From: an uncultured Alphaproteobacteria bacterium
GTDB taxonomy: Bacteria; Pseudomonadota; Alphaproteobacteria; RF32; CAG-239
Assembly (NCBI GenBank): GCA_934277545.1
Contig: CAKQUG010000006.1
Span: 5,473 to 69,472, forward strand
DNA length: 64,000 nucleotides
Reading direction: 5' to 3'
Part shown: positions 4,216 to 57,846 of the stretch, piece after piece
Layout of the letters: the number at the start of each line of letters is the position of its first letter
How positions within the stretch are numbered: position 1 is the stretch's first letter
Position numbers and translations under genes: made by a program
Notes under the pieces: generated by a model
The model's database searches: none
Seen by the model: only the letters and a program-made list of their open reading frames with translations
What the model was told of the DNA's origin: nothing

Positions 4216-5151
4216 TTACTCTTTTTCAAGCGGATGCGCTTTATGGTATTCTCTTTGCAAAGTTGCAGTTTGAACATCTGTGTAGCGCTGGGTGGTGCTT
4301 AGGGACGCATGACCTAACAATTCTTGAATTGAGCGCAAATCCGTTCCCTCAGCCAACAACTGCGTGGCAAACGAATGTCTCAAGGCATGCGGGGTTACCG
4401 TATCGGGCAACCCTAAAATCGGACGCAGTTTTTGCAGTTGGCGCTGAATTATACGCGGGCTGATTCGCTCACCTCGTGCCCCCAAAAACAATGGTTCTCC
4501 TACATTGAGTTTATACGGGCATTCTGCAAGGTAAGCGGCGATATGCTGCCAAATAATCGGAAGAAGGGGCACTAAACGTTCTTTATTCCCCTTACCTTTA
4601 ACGCGAAGGAACTCGCTTTTCGCCGTTATATCGCCAATATTTATAGAAAGGGCTTCGGATATACGCAATCCACAACCGTATAACAAGGTTAAAATTGCTT
4701 TATCCCGAAGTCCCTGCCACGCTTCTAATTCTAATTTTTCAATACCTTTAAGCAAATTAAATGAATCATCAATATCCAAAGCCTTTGGCAAAACTTTAGA
4801 TTTTTTAGGTGAAGAAATAACGCTGATTGCCGGATTTTTAATAATTTTTTTGCGTTCCAACCATTTGAAAAAATTTTTAACAGCCGAAAGCTCGCGGCAC
4901 ATTGAAGATTTACTCAAGCAACGCGCGGCTTGTTTGCTTAAAAACTTTCTGAAATCATGGACATCCAGTTCTTTTAATTCCTGCATACTCAACGGAGTAT
5001 CTTTGACTTCCGTCAAAAAGAAAGATAAATCACGCGAATACCCGTCTAAAGTATGTTCGGAATACAGTCGTTCTTTCAAAAGCCAATCTTGCCACTTTTC
5101 AATAAGCGGCAGCAATGTGTTATCGGCATTAAATTGAATTTCGGCTCTCAC
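4216..5151 (-). CDS. xerC: site-specific tyrosine recombinase, XerC-like
   Basis: C-terminal HALRHSFATQLLAEGTDLRSIQELLGHASLSTTQRYTDV with catalytic R..H..R..Y context. GTG start. XerC versus XerD is not certain. Confidence 0.75.
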   Translation of the reverse strand: MRAEIQFNADNTLLPLIEKWQDWLLKERLYSEHTLDGYSRDLSFFLTEVKDTPLSMQELKELDVHDFRKFLSKQAARCLSKSSMCRELSAVKNFFKWLERKKIIKNPAISVISSPKKSKVLPKALDIDDSFNLLKGIEKLELEAWQGLRDKAILTLLYGCGLRISEALSINIGDITAKSEFLRVKGKGNKERLVPLLPIIWQHIAAYLAECPYKLNVGEPLFLGARGERISPRIIQRQLQKLRPILGLPDTVTPHALRHSFATQLLAEGTDLRSIQELLGHASLSTTQRYTDVQTATLQREYHKAHPLEKE

Positions 5152-9239: not shown

Positions 9240-10076
9240 TTACAGATTTTCATCTATAGATTTAATTTCCTTCGGCGCACTATCTTTAGCCGGAACCGCG
9301 TTTTCATCTGTGGTAACAACTTTGTCTTCCAGTTCATCCATCAGCTTATCCAAATCCGAGGTTTCTTCTTTTTCATAGCCTTCGTCCTGAGTCTTGGTTT
9401 CGCCGTCAACCTTTGGCTGTACCAGTTTGTTAAACAGTTCTTCCCCGCTTTTTTTCAAAACTTCGCCATTGATACCGGCCGTATTATCAACCGCTTTTTC
9501 TTCTGTATTCTGAGCTTTGTCGCCTTCTGATTTTTCTTCTATCTTAGCAGCACCCAAACCAAGACTTTCGCCTTTAGCTTTCAAATCGTCAAACCATTTT
9601 TCAGGTATCAAGCCTTTAATCGGTCCGGCAGCGTCGCCGGCAAGTTTAAAGTAGCGGGATTCGGCAAACACACCTTTTTGCGATTCTTCCGGAATCAGTG
9701 ATGAAATCATAATCTGGAGCAAAATTACGATAATAACACCGCGAAAAATACCGAAAATAAATCCTAATATTCTATCCAGCGAACTTAATTTGCTGAAACG
9801 AATCTGCGTGCTGATTTTGTCGGCCGCCAGCACCCAAAAAATACAGAACATAATCAAAATAACCATACCGGAGACGAGGTTGGAAAGCACTTCGGAGGCT
9901 ATATATTTTTGCATTATCGGGTCAACCACCGGCAGCAGATAATACACTGAAACGGCCGCCAAAATCCAGCCGGTAATCGACAGCAGTTCTTTTGTTACGC
10001 CGCGGGCAATCGCCACCAGCGCCGAAACGCCGACAATTACCAAAAACACCACATCTAAGTTGTTTAATTGTTCCAT
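9240..10076 (-). CDS. cvpA: CvpA family membrane protein with an acidic low-complexity C-terminal tail
   Basis: The N-terminal 4-TM region resembles CvpA (colicin V production protein). The C-terminal ~110 aa are E/D/K-rich. Confidence 0.65.
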   Translation of the reverse strand: MEQLNNLDVVFLVIVGVSALVAIARGVTKELLSITGWILAAVSVYYLLPVVDPIMQKYIASEVLSNLVSGMVILIMFCIFWVLAADKISTQIRFSKLSSLDRILGFIFGIFRGVIIVILLQIMISSLIPEESQKGVFAESRYFKLAGDAAGPIKGLIPEKWFDDLKAKGESLGLGAAKIEEKSEGDKAQNTEEKAVDNTAGINGEVLKKSGEELFNKLVQPKVDGETKTQDEGYEKEETSDLDKLMDELEDKVVTTDENAVPAKDSAPKEIKSIDENL

Positions 10077-10086
10077 AATTTTGCTC

Positions 10087-11469
10087 CTAATTAAACCAAT
10101 TTATCAAACGATGAACATTGCCGATTTCATAGCAGGATAGCTCATAATTTTTTGCGCCTTTTTCTTTTTTATCTTTGCCGAAAGACGGTGGAATAATGGC
10201 GCTGACAAAGCCTAATTTATGCGCTTCTTTCATACGCAGATTCGGCTGGCTGACGGCTCTGATTTCTCCGGAAAGTCCGATTTCGCCGAACACCACCATA
10301 TCGGCCGGCAGCGGCTTGTTGGTAAGCGAAGAGATAACCGCCATGGCAACCGCCAAATCGGCAGCAGGCTCGGTAATTTTCAAGCCACCTGCTATATTTA
10401 AATACACATCATGCGAACTGAAATTCATACTGCAGCGAGCTTCCAACACTGCCAAAATCATTGACAAGCGGTTAGAATCCCAGCCCACAACCGCACGTTT
10501 AGGCGTTGAGTAGCCGCTCGGGCTGACCAAAGCCTGAATTTCCACCAGCAGCGGACGAGAACCTTCAATTCCGGCAAATACGCACGAACCGGAAACATTA
10601 CCTTGTCTTTCAGCCAAAAACAGAGCCGATGGATTCTCTACTTCAACCAACCCCTTATCCTGCATTTCAAACACGCCGATTTCATCTGTCGCGCCGTAGC
10701 GGTTTTTAACCGCACGCAAAATTCTGAAATGATGTCCGCGCTCGCCTTCAAAATACAACACCGTATCAACCATGTGCTCCAACACGCGCGGTCCGGCAAT
10801 TTCTCCCTGTTTGGTAACATGCCCGACTAGAAACAGCACAAATCCTTTGCGTTTGGCCAGTTTTATCAACTCGTATGCACAGGCTCTAACCTGCCCCACG
10901 CTGCCGGGAGTGGATTCTACTTCGTCTAAATACATTGTTTGAATAGAATCGATAATTACCACAGCCGCGTCTGTTTTTTCCAATGTGGTAATAATGTTGC
11001 GTACATCGGTGGCACTCGCCAAATTAACAGGGCTTTCAGCCAATCCCAAACGGCTTGCACGAATACGCACCTGGTCTATAGCTTCTTCTCCGGAAATATA
11101 ATAGCACGGATAATGTTCCTCTTTATTTGCCAAACCGGCACACACCTGCAGTAGCAATGTAGATTTACCGATTCCCGGGTCGCCGCCCACCAAAATAACC
11201 GACCCCGGCACCAATCCTCCGCCGGTTACCCTGTCAATTTCCTTAATGCCGGTCTGCAAACGCGCGTATGTGCTCTGTTCGCCTTTCAACGGCACAAAAT
11301 CAATGATTTTTCCTTCTTTACGCGGATTTATTTTAGAAAAACCGTCGTTTTTTTGCACTTCTTCGACAATAGTGTTCCACTCGCCGCAAGAATCACATTT
11401 CCCCTGCCAGCGCGGATAAGTCGTGCCGCAATTTTGACAAATAAATAAACTAACGTTTTTCTTCGCCAT
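10087..11469 (-). CDS. radA: DNA repair protein RadA
   Basis: Zinc finger CQNCG..C..CGEWN, Walker A GDPGIGKST, KNRYG motif and a Lon-like C-terminal domain. Confidence 0.95.
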   Translation of the reverse strand: MAKKNVSLFICQNCGTTYPRWQGKCDSCGEWNTIVEEVQKNDGFSKINPRKEGKIIDFVPLKGEQSTYARLQTGIKEIDRVTGGGLVPGSVILVGGDPGIGKSTLLLQVCAGLANKEEHYPCYYISGEEAIDQVRIRASRLGLAESPVNLASATDVRNIITTLEKTDAAVVIIDSIQTMYLDEVESTPGSVGQVRACAYELIKLAKRKGFVLFLVGHVTKQGEIAGPRVLEHMVDTVLYFEGERGHHFRILRAVKNRYGATDEIGVFEMQDKGLVEVENPSALFLAERQGNVSGSCVFAGIEGSRPLLVEIQALVSPSGYSTPKRAVVGWDSNRLSMILAVLEARCSMNFSSHDVYLNIAGGLKITEPAADLAVAMAVISSLTNKPLPADMVVFGEIGLSGEIRAVSQPNLRMKEAHKLGFVSAIIPPSFGKDKKEKGAKNYELSCYEIGNVHRLINWFN

Positions 11470-42468: not shown

Positions 42469-43305
42469 CTAAAATTCCAAAACAAACAAGCAATATTCCT
42501 CTCCTATCGCACAAGAGGTGCAAACATTTTGTATATCGGATAACGTCATATTAACTAAACACTTATTGCTGTCAGTGCATTGTGAATCTCCATAATAATG
42601 GATATTGCCGTTTTTAGTTCTAAAAATCCAGACAAATTGTAGAGAAGAATGCAAAGGCTGAGCAAAATTGCTGATAAATTCTCGGCACAATTTAGTTGAA
42701 AAATTATCTGAAACCAAATAGTTATCAGTAGAAGAGGCATTTCCTAGCGCTATGTCGTAAACTAGATGGTTATCACGGGAAAATATCGTGATTATGCTGC
42801 CGACAGTATCTGATATTACAGTACTGTTTTCAAACGACCAACCTTCAGGAAGCAGATTTAATCCTTTAATTGTTTCTGCTAAATCATATTTATTGCTACC
42901 ATTATCAGATTTCAGGTTTCTCAAATTATCTATATGTTCCAGCAAACCATGAGTTAAATAACTATATCCAGCAATGGCTTTGTTAATTTTCCACTTTTCC
43001 ATAGCCTTGGAATAACCAGCAATACCGCCAACCGATAACACGCCGATAATTGCCAGTACGCCCAGCATTTCTATCATTGAACGCCCACCTTGCAACACAC
43101 TCCAGTGGTCATACTTGGCTTTGAGCGTCAGTTCATTTTCCGAGAATCCGGTATGGTATATCCGCTTTAAAAACTTGCAACAAACGCTAAGCCCTCGCCC
43201 CCTGCACCCGTCATTCTCGAATTCATCCCGAGTATCTTGTATGAACATACTCCTTTTGAATAATAATGCGATAATCTTATCTCTCAACTCCTTATATCTC
43301 CTCAT
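42469..43305 (-). CDS. type IV pilin-like protein, copy A (prepilin-type N-terminal block; start uncertain)
   Basis: QGG|RSMIEMLGVLAIIGVLSVGGIAGYSKAM has Gly, Glu at +5 and a hydrophobic helix. The track ORF extends to 43362, into the inverted-repeat module; I regard that part as non-coding. Confidence 0.6.
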   Translation of the reverse strand: MRRYKELRDKIIALLFKRSMFIQDTRDEFENDGCRGRGLSVCCKFLKRIYHTGFSENELTLKAKYDHWSVLQGGRSMIEMLGVLAIIGVLSVGGIAGYSKAMEKWKINKAIAGYSYLTHGLLEHIDNLRNLKSDNGSNKYDLAETIKGLNLLPEGWSFENSTVISDTVGSIITIFSRDNHLVYDIALGNASSTDNYLVSDNFSTKLCREFISNFAQPLHSSLQFVWIFRTKNGNIHYYGDSQCTDSNKCLVNMTLSDIQNVCTSCAIGEEYCLFVLEF

Positions 43306-43306
43306 T

Positions 43307-43483
43307 TGTGTAAAAATAATGACCGTTATTTTTACACACTTTAAACAACCGTTTGAAAACACTTAACAAAACGCAAAAAATATTGTAATTATAAAAAGTT
43401 ATTGCAAATTTCACCGACCTTTGCTACATTGCAAAAAGAGTTAGTTTTAAAGTCCAATTTAAACGGTCGTTTTTTTTACACAC
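43307..43483. repeat. conserved ~177-bp module bounded by 22-bp inverted repeats, copy A
   Basis: About 85% identical by eye to 51451-51628. Left arm TGTGTAAAAATAATGACCGTT, right arm AACGGTCGTTTTTTTTACACAC. Confidence 0.75.
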
Positions 43484-46246: not shown

Positions 46247-46292
46247 TGACCTTCTAATTTCGGCAATGTATCAACAGGAGGACAAACAAAAA

Positions 46293-46814
46293 ATGAACAG
46301 AATAAATATAAAATCAACAACGTTAATCTGCATTGTTTCCCTTTACTTTGCAACGGTCTTAAACCTGTCGTTTTGGCGCTACATAACACACAACATTCAA
46401 ATCGACAGCCCGATGATGTTGCTGTTCGCCTTTTCCCTTGGCGTGTTTATATTTGTTCCTCTTTATGCGCTGTTCAATTTTTTATTTTGTCCTTATGTTG
46501 GTAAGCTGATAACAACAATATTGCTTTTAGGCTCGGCGGCGGCAAACTATTACATGTATGCTGACGGCATTTATATTGACTCCGATATGATTCGCAACAT
46601 TATGGAAACCAACCTGCGCGAAACGATAGAACACACTTCTTTTTCCTTCTGGATGTATGTTCTTTTTACCGGCGTGGTTCCGGCAATGCTGTTACAAATG
46701 TGCCGCATACAATATCAACCGGCCGCCGCCGAGCTCAAACAGCTGTCTATAATTCAAATATGGACATTACAGCCGGCTGCCGCTCCAGCGCTCTCGCCGT
46801 CAAATAATAATTGA
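46293..46814 (+). pseudogene. eptA: phosphoethanolamine transferase (EptA-like) N-terminal membrane domain only; sulfatase domain missing
   Basis: MNRINIKSTTLICIVSLYFATVLNLSFWRYI...YMYADGIYIDSDMIRNIMETNLRE matches the EptA/DUF1705 N-terminal region. The frame ends after ~150 homologous aa in an unrelated GC-rich tail. Full-length enzymes are about 550 aa. Confidence 0.6.
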
Positions 46815-50513: not shown

Positions 50514-50546
50514 AAAGCCTGATATACTTAAACATCAGGCTTTTAT
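50514..50546. terminator. hairpin terminator between convergent ettA and pilin-like copy B
   Basis: AAAGCCTGAT / ATCAGGCTTT 10-bp stem followed by TTTTAT. Confidence 0.65.
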
Positions 50547-50547
50547 G

Positions 50548-51435
50548 TTAATCAGGATTGAGCAAAATTCGGAAATATCCTCGTCCGTTTTCTTTAATTG
50601 CAATATTGCAGCGTTCATTTATTTGCGCAGGAGAAGTCTGTCCGATTGTGCTTTTATTGAAAATCAACACACCGCTAGTTCCGCTCCAGCTATCGGAATC
50701 TATGCGGCTAAAGTCAACCTGTTCAACTTCATTGGGTATGGTTTGTACGATTTGTATAATATTTTTACAATATTCTTTCATGGATATAGAAAGTTTGCCG
50801 GTTCCTTCTATGGCGCTGATACGAATTGCATATTTAAATACTTGTTTGGTAGAACCGTCTTTTTGCATGTCATTTTCAATGCCATAGGTTATGCTTATAC
50901 TGTTATTATCTAAGTCATATATTATGCGGTTTTTATAAATAAAACCATTTGGTATGGCTCCCATAGCATTAAAAATATCAGTTACAGTTATTGAGCGATT
51001 TCCTCTTATGGAAGACAAATTTGGTTTTAGAGTAATAGCATTGTTTATTAACTCAACAAGCAAATCTTTCTGCTTGTCTGAATGCCACATCAGCATAGCT
51101 TTGGAATATCCGGCGATACCACCTACGCTCAGCACGGCAATAATCGCGAGCACGCCGAGCATTTCAATCATAGACCGACCAACCTCGCCACATGCGGGAG
51201 AGGTCGGCGTGATAACGCCGTGTGAGGGATACTTAAAAGACTTGCAAAAGACACCAAACCAGCGTTTCCAGTACCTACCTAAAACGTCATTCTTCAGCGG
51301 CACACACCACAGGCTGTGCCATGCTGGATAATCCATGACTTTGTTGCTGAAAGCAACGCTACTTTTTTCTCCCGCACGGGGCGAGGTTTTAAATCCCCTA
51401 CTCTTCTTCAATAAAAATTCTATACCTTTCAACAC
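50548..51435 (-). CDS. type IV pilin-like protein, copy B, with a ~95-aa leader
   Basis: GTG at 51435 preceded by AAGGAG at 7-nt spacing. ...GEVG|RSMIEMLGVLAIIAVLSVGGIAGYSKAM. Confidence 0.6.
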   Translation of the reverse strand: MLKGIEFLLKKSRGFKTSPRAGEKSSVAFSNKVMDYPAWHSLWCVPLKNDVLGRYWKRWFGVFCKSFKYPSHGVITPTSPACGEVGRSMIEMLGVLAIIAVLSVGGIAGYSKAMLMWHSDKQKDLLVELINNAITLKPNLSSIRGNRSITVTDIFNAMGAIPNGFIYKNRIIYDLDNNSISITYGIENDMQKDGSTKQVFKYAIRISAIEGTGKLSISMKEYCKNIIQIVQTIPNEVEQVDFSRIDSDSWSGTSGVLIFNKSTIGQTSPAQINERCNIAIKENGRGYFRILLNPD

Positions 51436-51450
51436 GTTGTTTCTCCTTGA

Positions 51451-51628
51451 GTGTGTAAAAATAACGACCGTTATTTTTACACACTTCGAACAACCGTCTG
51501 AAAATACTTAAAAAACAAGCAAAAAATATCGTAATTATAAAAAGTTATTGCAAAAACCGCCAACCTCTGATAAATTGCAAAAAAAGCTATTTTAAAGTCC
51601 GATTTAAACGGTCGTTATTTTTACACAC
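51451..51628. repeat. conserved 178-bp module bounded by perfect 22-bp inverted repeats, copy B
   Basis: GTGTGTAAAAATAACGACCGTT (51451-51472) is the exact reverse complement of AACGGTCGTTATTTTTACACAC (51607-51628). The left end is itself a 34-bp near-palindrome. Confidence 0.8.
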
Positions 51629-51669
51629 TTTTGACAAAACACTCTTATATGACATTTACAATTTAACAT

Positions 51670-51698
51670 TTGACATATTTAGTTTGAGCACCTAAAAT
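51670..51698 (+). promoter_or_regulatory. near-consensus sigma70 promoter (TTGACA-17-TAAAAT) upstream of pilin-like copy C
   Basis: Hexamers at 51670-51675 and 51693-51698, about 35 nt upstream of the RBS GAGGA (51721-51725) and the ATG at 51733. Confidence 0.5.
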
Positions 51699-51755
51699 AA
51701 AAATATAACTAACCAAAAATGAGGAAAGAAAGATGAAAAATAAGCAAACAAAAGG

Positions 51756-51770
51756 TCTCTCTCTCTCTCT
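51756..51770 (+). repeat. (CT)7 dinucleotide tract
   Basis: TCTCTCTCTCTCTCT read directly. It lies between the ATG at 51733 and the open frame leading into copy C. Confidence 0.95.
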
Positions 51771-51908
51771 GCAAATCCTAGACATCTAATTAAAGGTACT
51801 TTTTTCGCCGCTACACAGGTATTTACAGAGTTTTTCGATAAAATCAGAAATTTTCCAACCTCGCCAATTGAGGGAGTACTAAGAAGCGTTGCTTACAGTA
51901 ACAAGGTT

Positions 51909-52808
51909 ATGGATACTCGTCGGCCACAACCAGCGGGGTGTGGCGACAAGTATGACGTTGATTGTTGGTGCTTTAAACGCTTGTTTAATATATGTAGCAA
52001 GTTCTTTAAATACCCCTCACCCGACACTAACGTGTCGACCTCTCCCGCAAGGGGCGAGGTAAAAACAAACATCCTACACAATGGTTTGGATGTCGTGCGT
52101 CAATACGCCGCACTTTTGGAACGTGGTGTACAATGTAGTACACGAGTGAGAAAAGCGCTAGTAGAGACCAGACAGGCAAACCCGCTAGGGCAGAGTATGA
52201 TTGAAATGCTCGGAGTGCTCGCAATCATTGCGGTGTTATCAGTTGGTGGGATTGCCGGATACTCAAAAGCTATGAGTATTTGGCGGATAAACAAAGCCAC
52301 GGAAGAATATACCAACATAATTTACAATTTGCTATCAAATCTTGATGAAGCCAGAAATCAAAAATATGAAGACCCAGCTGCAGGAATAAATTTATTTGAA
52401 TATGTAAAAGCAACAGATATTGTACCTAAAAATTGGAAAAACAATTCGAATAACCAGTTTATAGACCAATATGGAAATGTTTTTGCATTTGTTCATCGAT
52501 ACAACATCGTTGTTATTGATATGTATATCGGTGGTTCAAAGCCTCTAAACAGTGGAAATGCCGGCTTAGATAGTTTCTACCCTCAATATTGTACAACAAT
52601 GTTAAGGAATGTAGCAAAACCTCTTTCTTCTATTCTTAACAATGTTTGGTTTATAATAAATGGGCGTAATGCAGGTATATATTATGGTGATAATTACTGT
52701 GTCAAAGGAAAAAATTGTATAAGAAATATGAATATGAGCACAATAAAAGATATTTGCTTACAATGTACTAATAACAATAGTTTTTGTGGTATAATTTGGG
52801 AATTTTAA
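51909..52808 (+). CDS. type IV pilin-like protein, copy C (frame is open upstream to 51744)
   Basis: ...NPLGQ|SMIEMLGVLAIIAVLSVGGIAGYSKAM. The ATG at 51909 has no RBS and lies inside the conserved SVAYSNKVMD leader motif. Confidence 0.6.
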   Translation: MDTRRPQPAGCGDKYDVDCWCFKRLFNICSKFFKYPSPDTNVSTSPARGEVKTNILHNGLDVVRQYAALLERGVQCSTRVRKALVETRQANPLGQSMIEMLGVLAIIAVLSVGGIAGYSKAMSIWRINKATEEYTNIIYNLLSNLDEARNQKYEDPAAGINLFEYVKATDIVPKNWKNNSNNQFIDQYGNVFAFVHRYNIVVIDMYIGGSKPLNSGNAGLDSFYPQYCTTMLRNVAKPLSSILNNVWFIINGRNAGIYYGDNYCVKGKNCIRNMNMSTIKDICLQCTNNNSFCGIIWEF

Positions 52809-52898
52809 AATATACAACAAACATCTTTTAACATACGCCCCAAAAAATGCAGACCGCCTGTCGCGAATGTGTTAACTCATCAGACGGGCAATGTGGCT

Positions 52899-56925: not shown

Positions 56926-57651
56926 TTAAAAGGAAGTGTTATCCAACAAAAACACTATACCGCAGCGATTAAGCTCGCATTTCTTGCAAAGTTCAGCCAC
57001 CTTAGCTAAACTATAGGGCTGACATCCCATATCTTTTGCATATTCAGTCGGAGCCGCTTTTCCGCAAACCGCATAACCGAAATTTTCATTCCAAACAACC
57101 CAATTACTATTAAAAACCTGCCCCATCTCATACAATTTCTTACAGCAGGCAACTGCGTCTTTTCCCGCCGGCATTTGATGATACACATGCAGCCTTATAC
57201 CATATTTAGCCCAATATCTGGTTAAAATCTGCAATCTGTTGCCAAACAAATCTCTGCGGTTCGCATCCAACATGCCTTGAGGAATCACTCCTGATTCAAT
57301 CAAAGTTCCGGTAATATCCTTAACCGTATCGCCGAATGATTTTTGGTTCATATACATAGCCTGTGTTTCTACAATAACCTGGGTTAAGTTTGCACTCCAC
57401 TTATCCAGTTTATACATACTCATTGCTTTGGAATATCCGGCAATTCCTCCGACTGACAGCACGCCGATAATAGCCAGCACGCCCAGCATTTCAATCATAC
57501 TTCGTCCGCCCTGTATATTGTTACCAACGCCATACTTCGGCACTTCATGCCGTTTAATGGACTGAGACAGTTTCGGAGTATCCATGACTTTGTTGCCAAA
57601 GGCAACGCTTATTAAACGATAGAATACACTATTTTCAAACTTCTTACACAT
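56926..57651 (-). CDS. type IV pilin-like protein, copy D, with a 49-aa leader
   Basis: AAGAGG lies 9 nt before the ATG at 57651. ...NIQGG|RSMIEMLGVLAIIGVLSVGGIAGYSKAM. Confidence 0.65.
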   Translation of the reverse strand: MCKKFENSVFYRLISVAFGNKVMDTPKLSQSIKRHEVPKYGVGNNIQGGRSMIEMLGVLAIIGVLSVGGIAGYSKAMSMYKLDKWSANLTQVIVETQAMYMNQKSFGDTVKDITGTLIESGVIPQGMLDANRRDLFGNRLQILTRYWAKYGIRLHVYHQMPAGKDAVACCKKLYEMGQVFNSNWVVWNENFGYAVCGKAAPTEYAKDMGCQPYSLAKVAELCKKCELNRCGIVFLLDNTSF

Positions 57652-57675: not shown

Positions 57676-57700
57676 AAAATAAAAACCCGCACAAAGCGGG
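57676..57700 (-). terminator. short GC hairpin plus U-run directly upstream of the copy D RBS
   Basis: The minus strand reads CCCGC-TTTGT-GCGGG followed by TTTTTATTTT. The stem is only 5 bp. Confidence 0.45.
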
Positions 57701-57708
57701 CGGATGTT

Positions 57709-57846
57709 CAGAAACCGTATATGAGTAAACGGCTCGGCTTATTCAGCACATAGCCACATTTAGCCGACATCCGTCCAACGAACAGAAATCGGCATATAAA
57801 ATTTTAAGTCGCTTATGCTCTGCGACTACTCATATAAGGGGTTCTG
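57709..57846 (-). ncRNA. candidate structured leader RNA (riboswitch-like or sRNA), unclassified
   Basis: An interrupted ~19-bp closing helix (57709-57727 with 57827-57846) encloses three hairpins. It lies between a terminator at 57957-57987 and the terminator at 57676-57700. Confidence 0.3.

Follow-up and report, generated by a model that had tools for sequence, protein, structure and literature searches.

Between two divergent pilin-like genes of an uncultured Alphaproteobacteria bacterium lies a 178-bp module that is probably an invertible promoter cassette of the Mpi type, the type flipped by a small serine invertase, caught in its OFF state. The module belongs to a continuous stretch of 64,000 nucleotides, which was analyzed at its full length and is referred to here as the window; positions are those of the window unless another locus is named. 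The support for this reading comes from the anatomy of the sites at the module ends, their conservation, a match to the Mpi repeat consensus, relatives that encode a member of the Mpi family, and a sister element that inverts. Three points are inferred: flipping of the module itself, an OFF state in the assembly, and an invertase gene in the window's own genome. The sequence-only reading had left three options, namely an inverton of the fim or Bacteroides type, a MITE, and an operator pair. The inverton is the best supported of the three, in its Bacteroides Mpi serine-invertase form and not in its fim form, and no inverted copy of the module was found.

Site anatomy, copies and internal promoter of the module

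The module is bounded by two inverted-repeat arms of 23 nt each (51450-51472 and 51607-51629), which are 100% complementary and 134 nt apart. The 22-bp core of the repeat (51451-51472 and 51607-51628) is exact, and the left module end forms a 17+2+17 palindrome (51450-51485) in which only the central AC is asymmetric. The exact 22-bp repeats and the 34-bp left palindrome had been described from the sequence before, and all of their coordinates and sequences check out. Allowing up to three mismatches, the 22-mer occurs six times in the 64-kb window, always inside one of two modules, and 0 times in 100 shuffles. Each module end contains two 16-nt half-sites flanking a 2-nt centre, which is the layout of a recombinase site. 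The left site (L, 51451-51484, palindromic over 34 bp except for its centre) has the arrangement a-AC-a', with half-site a (GTGTGTAAAAATAACG) at 51451-51466, the centre AC at 51467-51468, and half-site a' (CGTTATTTTTACACAC) at 51469-51484; the left arm of the 22-bp repeat covers the outer half-site, the centre, and 4 nt past the centre. The right site (R, 51595-51628), defined from the sequence and the alignment of copies, has the arrangement b-GT-a'', with the inner half-site b (AAGTCCGATTTAAACG) at 51595-51610, the centre GT at 51611-51612, and the outer half-site a'' (again CGTTATTTTTACACAC) at 51613-51628. The right end had been taken for a repeat arm; the arm (51607-51628) is present, but it lies within this second two-half-site site, the inner half of which is of the other type. 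Half-site b has the conserved form (C/A)(T/A)GTCC.(A/T)TTTAAACG and is a half-site type distinct from a. Next to the left site is a spacer (51485-51518) that is hypervariable in sequence, with low information content, and fixed in length. Outside the left arm, the ribosome-binding site (RBS) AAGGAG (51443-51448) and the GTG start (51435) of gene B, a type 1 pilin-like gene (50548-51435, minus strand), are found within 2-16 nt, consistent with the earlier description of their position.

A second copy of the module is located at 43306-43483, upstream of gene A, another type 1 pilin-like gene (42469-43287, minus strand). Its sites are at 43306-43339 (L) and 43450-43483 (R), and its predicted promoter has a -35 element at 43402-43407, a TG at 43422-43423, and a -10 element TACATT at 43425-43430. 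The two copies match along the full module, with a mean identity of 83% over wider 300-nt aligned stretches, and the flanking leader regions barely align. These comparisons confirm that the whole module is duplicated and that it is better conserved than the adjacent coding leaders. The left core of the second copy is mutated to AATG-AC-CGTT in this strain, which counts against the Mpi-type inverton. Gene A is called as 272 aa; its canonical ATG position is now GAG, and the start is likely the TTG at 43287.

A profile built from the two window copies gave 67 full-length module matches in the loci examined, including 65 distinct copies with a readable state. These 65 copies come from gut Alphaproteobacteria assemblies, and in each of them the palindrome abuts an RBS and a start codon, the gene being pilin-like almost always. 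The palindrome is 3-4 nt from a conserved AGGAGG-N7-ATG start in every copy, and a MIEMLG motif is in frame with the palindrome-adjacent start codon in 59 of 59 module copies, at a distance of 102-633 nt. The same left palindrome with the AC centre is found in 57 distinct copies, and all 57 have AC at L and GT at R. The distance from centre to centre is 144 bp (143-145), despite the hypervariable interior of ~35 nt. Conservation across module copies ends exactly at the right repeat.

Diverged variants (L028, L064, L102, and L093) were recovered by the profile search; a 13-mer anchored search was too noisy. In L028, the sites are composed of b-type half-sites, and the base next to the centre is changed in a mirrored manner (AAACC-AC-CGTT and AACG-GT-GGTTT), while L102 contains full palindromes at both sites. 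In L064 just the promoter half remains; an R-like site comes after it, then an RBS, then a pilin-gene ATG. This order is the layout expected from inversion, so that a 'fixed ON' layout exists, and it counts in favor of the inverton. 'Solo' palindromes precede type 1 genes in L036 (3898-3979) and L117 (5464-5549), where the interior and one repeat are gone between the direct repeats a' and a''. [quoted passage not shown] Three copies (L092 from 299, L093 from 1105, and L099 from 979) are located before a Cys-rich, repeat-rich signal-peptide protein (MFNYLKKYNIFC...), so the module is not restricted to pilin-like genes. A different arrangement was observed in L069 (5958-7375), where two convergent pilin-like genes share identical 5' UTRs and first 43 codons. 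A perfect 24-nt inverted repeat, whose core is AAACG-GA-GGTT, encloses this gene pair, which may be a gene-swapping inversion cassette.

Inside the module, a sigma-70 promoter is predicted in silico on the plus strand (51534-51576), pointing away from gene B. It is composed of an UP-like element ATTATAAAAAGTTA (51534-51547), the -35 element TTGCAA (51548-51553), a 17-nt spacer, and an extended -10 element with TG at 51568-51569 and TAAATT at 51571-51576. On the plus strand of 54 copies, TTGCAA, the 17-nt spacer, and TG-n-T-A-n-A-n-T are conserved, and -10 positions 3 and 5 vary freely; in an alignment, variation limited to these non-critical positions is the signature of a selected extended -10 element. 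The stretch (TAT)AAAAAG-N3/4 before the -35 element is common to the tRNA-Asp, tRNA-Ser, and L36 promoters of the window, which have an AAAAAG-N3/4-TTG.. layout. The right-hand neighbor of the module was classified in 37 loci: it is pilin-like with its own promoter in 14, otherwise co-directional in 10, and a minus-strand ORF in 13, at least 8 of which are real convergent housekeeping genes 40-100 nt away. These convergent neighbors, and the stop of conservation at the right repeat, indicate that the promoter is not kept for expressing the right flank. The proposal that the module is the promoter of copy C fails, as gene C has its own consensus promoter on the plus strand (TTGACA 51670-51675, a 17-nt spacer, and TAAAAT 51693-51698), a start at 51733, and a (TC)7 frameshift switch. 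TTGCAA had also been proposed to serve as a -35 element in both directions. The plus-strand TTGCAA-17-TAAATT is conserved, but the minus-strand TTGCAA-17-GATATT (51530-51525), although present, does not stand out.

Other functions of the module were considered. The module matches no Rfam family, either at the gathering threshold or with the cut-off relaxed to E <= 1. A short RNA that starts at the internal promoter and stops at the right repeat was rejected, as no terminator-like fold is formed (-5.9 kcal/mol, z = -0.9). A methylation switch was also rejected, by inspection only, as the module contains no GANTC, the motif of the CcrM-like methylase of the window.

Human gut metagenomes have yielded contigs nearly identical to the window, of which two carry the label Hadza/Nepal. 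Gene B, the module, and gene C form a strain-variable island of 2.36 kb (50543-52898), an indel between strains that is missing from L006 and L007, whose EttA protein is identical. GGCTT microhomology is found at both ends of the island. When the window is compared with L001 and L003, strains that are otherwise identical, ~8 changes are found within ~30 nt (51554-51585), in the promoter spacer and -10 element (TAAATT vs TAATTT). This substitution hot spot suggests gene conversion from other module copies.

Mpi-family invertases and an inverting sister element

The repeat consensus of Bacteroides fragilis Mpi is ARACGTTCGTN, and the Mpi-type invertible promoters of B. intestinalis are 183-186 bp in length and flanked by GTTCGTTTAA (PMC8375218). 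The module core AAACGGTCGTT (AAACG-GT-CGTT) agrees with the former consensus at 10 of 11 positions, and the sole mismatch is one centre base (PMC8375218).

When all loci were scanned for motifs, a single serine recombinase was recovered, encoded in L015 at 9465-10121 and containing Resolvase and HTH_7 domains. This protein scores 293.6 bits against the NCBIfam model NF009949, 'master DNA invertase Mpi family' (cut-off 272). A module is present on the same contig at 5402-5669, 3.8 kb from the invertase gene. Homologues of the invertase are named Mpi family by NCBI in Alphaproteobacteria MAGs, and in four further assemblies (three labelled Hadza) a 94%-identical invertase gene is found near rpoD, divergent to a short-leader pilin-like gene. 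There is no serine invertase gene in the 64-kb window. The only recombinase encoded there (4216-5151) is a tyrosine recombinase with an Xer-type domain pair, probably XerC/D.

Inversion itself was observed in a sister element. Another Mpi-family gene (P0218, 63% identical) is followed directly by a 172-nt segment that has opposite orientations in L147/L148 and in L149, with 168 of 172 positions identical after reverse complementing, compared with 100 in the same orientation. The inverting element (L147:10636-10842 and L149:10636-10841) bears a promoter, is located upstream of a polysaccharide locus, and has site centres 184 bp apart. Its repeats are ...GACG-GT-GGTTT and AAACC-AC-CGTT..., and each of its sites is a palindrome whose half-sites (GTGTTGTTT.TA.AC.) resemble a as well as b. 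The segment is a directly observed inverton with an AAACC-AC-CGT core, and its 10-nt core AAACCACCGT is the one bounding the L028 variant of the pilin module. In L150 (765-964), an Alphaproteobacteria MAG, the palindrome GAAATAAATAACG-TC-CGTTTTTTATTTC comes after an Mpi gene and has a partner site, AACG-GA-GGTTATTT, 181 bp away, ahead of a polysaccharide locus; the architecture is unchanged and the centre differs. The centres co-vary and are mirrored between paired sites, being AC/GT in the module and TC/GA in this Mpi-adjacent pair.

The module resembles the Mpi promoters of Bacteroides (B. fragilis polysaccharide promoters and B. intestinalis PVR7-12) in several respects. Each is a short cassette (the module measures 178 bp, those of B. 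intestinalis 183-186 bp) flanked by inverted repeats with the core AAACG-NN-CGT; both contain a promoter, occur in many unlinked copies per genome, and are located upstream of genes for surface structures; and in both cases there is an Mpi-family serine invertase (NF009949), here encoded in relatives. There are also differences. The host belongs to Alphaproteobacteria, not Bacteroidota, the promoter is of the sigma-70 type, and the targets are pilin-like genes instead of polysaccharide operons. The centre is GT/AC here and TT/AA there, and the left site here, a perfect palindrome of 34 bp, adjoins the RBS. At 144 bp, the core is shorter than previously described Mpi-type invertons, and one orientation is seen here.

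Other known switches share parts of this design. The sites of the Hin, Gin, Cin, and Pin invertases (hix, gix) contain two inverted half-sites with an A/T tract and a 2-bp crossover centre, and the two sites of a pair are inverted; the module sites are likewise inverted half-sites around a 2-nt centre, paired in inverted orientation. The Hin, Gin, Cin, and Pin systems flip 1-4 kb, usually together with the invertase gene and a Fis-dependent enhancer, each at a single locus. In Escherichia coli fimS, as proposed here for the module, a short invertible segment immediately before a pilus subunit gene carries the promoter. The fimS switch relies on the tyrosine recombinases FimB and FimE, 9-bp repeats, and a 314-bp segment, and it is present in a single copy.

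Proposed inversion and alternative explanations

As an Mpi-type cassette, the module would control the pilin-like gene abutting its left end, which is gene B here and gene A for the second copy. Each end would act as a dimer-binding recombination site made of two 16-nt half-sites and a 2-nt crossover centre. Since the centres AC and GT are reverse complements, the sites are in inverted orientation, and recombination would flip the 144-bp core. In the assembled orientation, the predicted strong sigma-70 promoter points away from the gene, which would be OFF. After inversion, the promoter would read through the site into the RBS, producing a 5' UTR of ~60 nt, and the gene would be ON.

The inverted orientation was found in 0 of the 65 distinct assembled copies, and consensus assemblies cannot show a minority orientation. 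An exact-pattern scan of a metagenome collection for the inverted junction also returned 0 matches; the orientation-neutral control returned 51 stretches, all in the reference state. Only 3 contigs were obtained from an exact-protein look-up of gene B for orientation variants. Contig ends at the palindrome were considered as a sign of mixed orientation and set aside, as they are equally explained by the repeat and the palindrome. Some invertons are reported to have a nearly universal preference for one orientation (PMC11892184). As 41 of 42 (TC)n switches in this gene family are OFF, a consensus OFF state is the family norm, and the single orientation of the modules is not decisive.

The same single orientation in 65 copies would be expected if the module were a static cassette, an explanation that we consider possible though rather unlikely. 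It would then contain two overlapping divergent promoters between operators L and R, with no DNA rearrangement, and a family-specific dimeric regulator would loop the 144 bp between L and R and repress or co-ordinate the pilin-like genes. The perfect palindrome at L is of the type bound by dimeric repressors, and the fixed L-R spacing of 143-145 bp fits this explanation as well. A further point concerns the minus strand, where TTGnnn-18-TATA(A/T)T (51563 to 51534) is also conserved and could drive the abutting gene; if real, this promoter would do so without any inversion, which counts against the inverton. Its -10 element has decayed to GATATT in L064, which has no leftward gene. As a working promoter, however, the minus-strand pattern is at most a candidate, because its '-10' falls in the UP-like A/T stretch, which the tRNA and L36 promoters of this genome carry as well. 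The static explanation also leaves the outward promoter without a conserved target, and no candidate regulator was found for it. Moreover, every lineage has the asymmetric centre and the base beside it in mirrored form at L and R (AC/GT; C-AC-C and G-GT-G in L028), although a symmetric operator has no use for such mirroring. Finally, the core agrees with both the Mpi recombination consensus and the repeats of a demonstrably inverting element.

The left palindrome may also be read as RNA. As part of the 5' UTR of the pilin-like mRNA, it would fold into a 16-bp stem-loop immediately upstream of the Shine-Dalgarno sequence and influence stability or translation, and the right repeat would be a by-product of duplication. 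The 95 nt of the minus strand fold at -25.1 kcal/mol (z = -3.8), no shuffle folds as well, and in all copies 2-4 nt separate the end of the hairpin from the RBS. Any DNA palindrome, however, folds well as RNA, and an Rfam match is absent. The hairpin would require a leftward promoter, itself only putative, and it leaves the conserved right site, the fixed spacing, and the outward promoter unexplained. We regard this explanation as very unlikely.

That the module is a MITE or another small mobile element with terminal inverted repeats can practically be dismissed: it has such repeats, many copies per genome, and conservation ending exactly at the right repeat, but 65 of 65 copies share one position and one orientation with respect to the start codon, target-site duplications are absent, no copies were found at unrelated sites (the window holds two only), and the real MITE-like elements of the region are different sequences located inside leaders.

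Pilin-like genes and a possible surface-variation system

The window contains four pilin-like genes, A to D, which share the invariant prepilin-type cleavage motif G↓(R/Q)SMIEMLGVLAII.VLSVGGIAGYSKAM (the arrow marks the cleavage point), with Glu at +5 and a hydrophobic N-terminal helix following. The scores of the pilin-like proteins against Pfam N_methyl and TIGR02532 are just below the cut-offs. Gene B encodes an 87-aa translated leader followed by G↓RSMIEMLGVLAII..., and gene D (56926-57651, minus strand) encodes a 50-aa leader and has no module; many paralogues have classical leaders of 7-10 aa, such as MKQNQFG↓RS. The Ser codon before the motif is TCA, TCT, or AGT in three genes, which indicates that residues upstream of the Met are translated. 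The motif is always in frame with the adjacent ATG, which likewise indicates that the long leaders are translated, and REP- and MITE-like insertions in the leaders are always in frame. An AlphaFold2 model (pLDDT 81) contains an N-terminal helix of 45 residues and then beta strands. A fold search of the PDB with the pilin-like domain gave nothing significant (best E = 0.03, TM 0.27). For mature gene C (52188-52805), the globular domain is confidently modelled (pLDDT 81) and has no significant PDB match. The family is large: a protein search returned 6,686 relatives, more than 572 stretches were confirmed in species-representative genomes, and a single MAG holds dozens. The closest genomes with this gene family are mostly labelled uncultured Alphaproteobacteria.

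Several additional features of these genes and their surroundings were observed. MITE-like elements of ~208 bp are inserted in frame inside the translated leaders of B (51181-51388) and C (51858-52060). They have terminal inverted repeats of 19-21 nt (ACCTCGCC...GGGAG), and the pair forms a long inverted repeat around the module. REP-like peptides (LLRCARNDAE and SPSPARGE) recur in the leaders of many paralogues. A structured stretch upstream of gene D (57677-57776) ends in a terminator-like hairpin, and sub-threshold Rfam matches there include sRNA-Xcc1 (26.5 bits, threshold 53) and anti-hemB. Elsewhere in the window, a 182-aa ORF (46266-46814) with only the N-terminal EptA/EptB domain adjoins a two-component system and may be a truncated phosphoethanolamine transferase.

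Gene C is a type 2 pilin-like gene (51733-52808, plus strand) with an RBS at 51721-51728 and an ATG at 51733. It and about 45 relatives (e.g., in L127, L015, and L028) begin with MKNKQ.KG, followed by a (TC)n tract, which is (TC)7 at 51756-51769 in the window and (TC)8 at the same locus in sister strains. With (TC)6 or (TC)9, a single ORF of 357 or 359 codons extends from 51733 to 52808; with (TC)7 or (TC)8, a stop occurs after 18 or 16 codons, and the window copy of gene C is OFF, its frame being broken. Throughout the family, n alone determines whether the pilin domain is in frame (at 6) or out of frame (at 7 or 8), and 41 of 42 classifiable copies are OFF. The tract is a case of slipped-strand phase variation in the leader-coding region. 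As in Neisseria opa genes with their CTCTT repeats, a repeat tract that directly follows the start codon decides the frame in which the entire protein is read. Unlike in opa, the unit is a dinucleotide and the proteins are pilin-like, and the likeness concerns the neighbor gene C, not the module.

Taken tentatively, the module may be one layer of a combinatorial surface-variation system, made of invertase cassettes, (TC)n tracts, and tolerant leaders, that is undescribed in Alphaproteobacteria. In such a system, one Mpi-family master invertase would flip dozens of promoter cassettes before type 1 pilin-like genes, and (TC)n slippage would turn type 2 paralogues on and off. In-frame MITE-like insertions would be tolerated by the translated leaders, which are unusually long (30-210 aa) and would be cleaved off at G↓RSMIE. 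These insertions would form long inverted repeats between divergent genes and may allow the exchange of 5' expression cassettes.

For annotation, these results mean that the long 'leaders' are translated, that gene C starts at 51733 and not at 51909, and that the consensus sequence shows most family members in a silent state. The signature xTGT-N9-AAC(G/C)-NN-(G/C)GTT may be used to find such switches without reads. If the module flips, gut Alphaproteobacteria from Hadza and Nepali metagenomes would possess a master-invertase regulon similar to that of Bacteroides, acting on a very large pilin-like family rather than on capsules. This would explain the assembly breaks at pilin-like genes, and it would extend Mpi-type global phase variation to another phylum.
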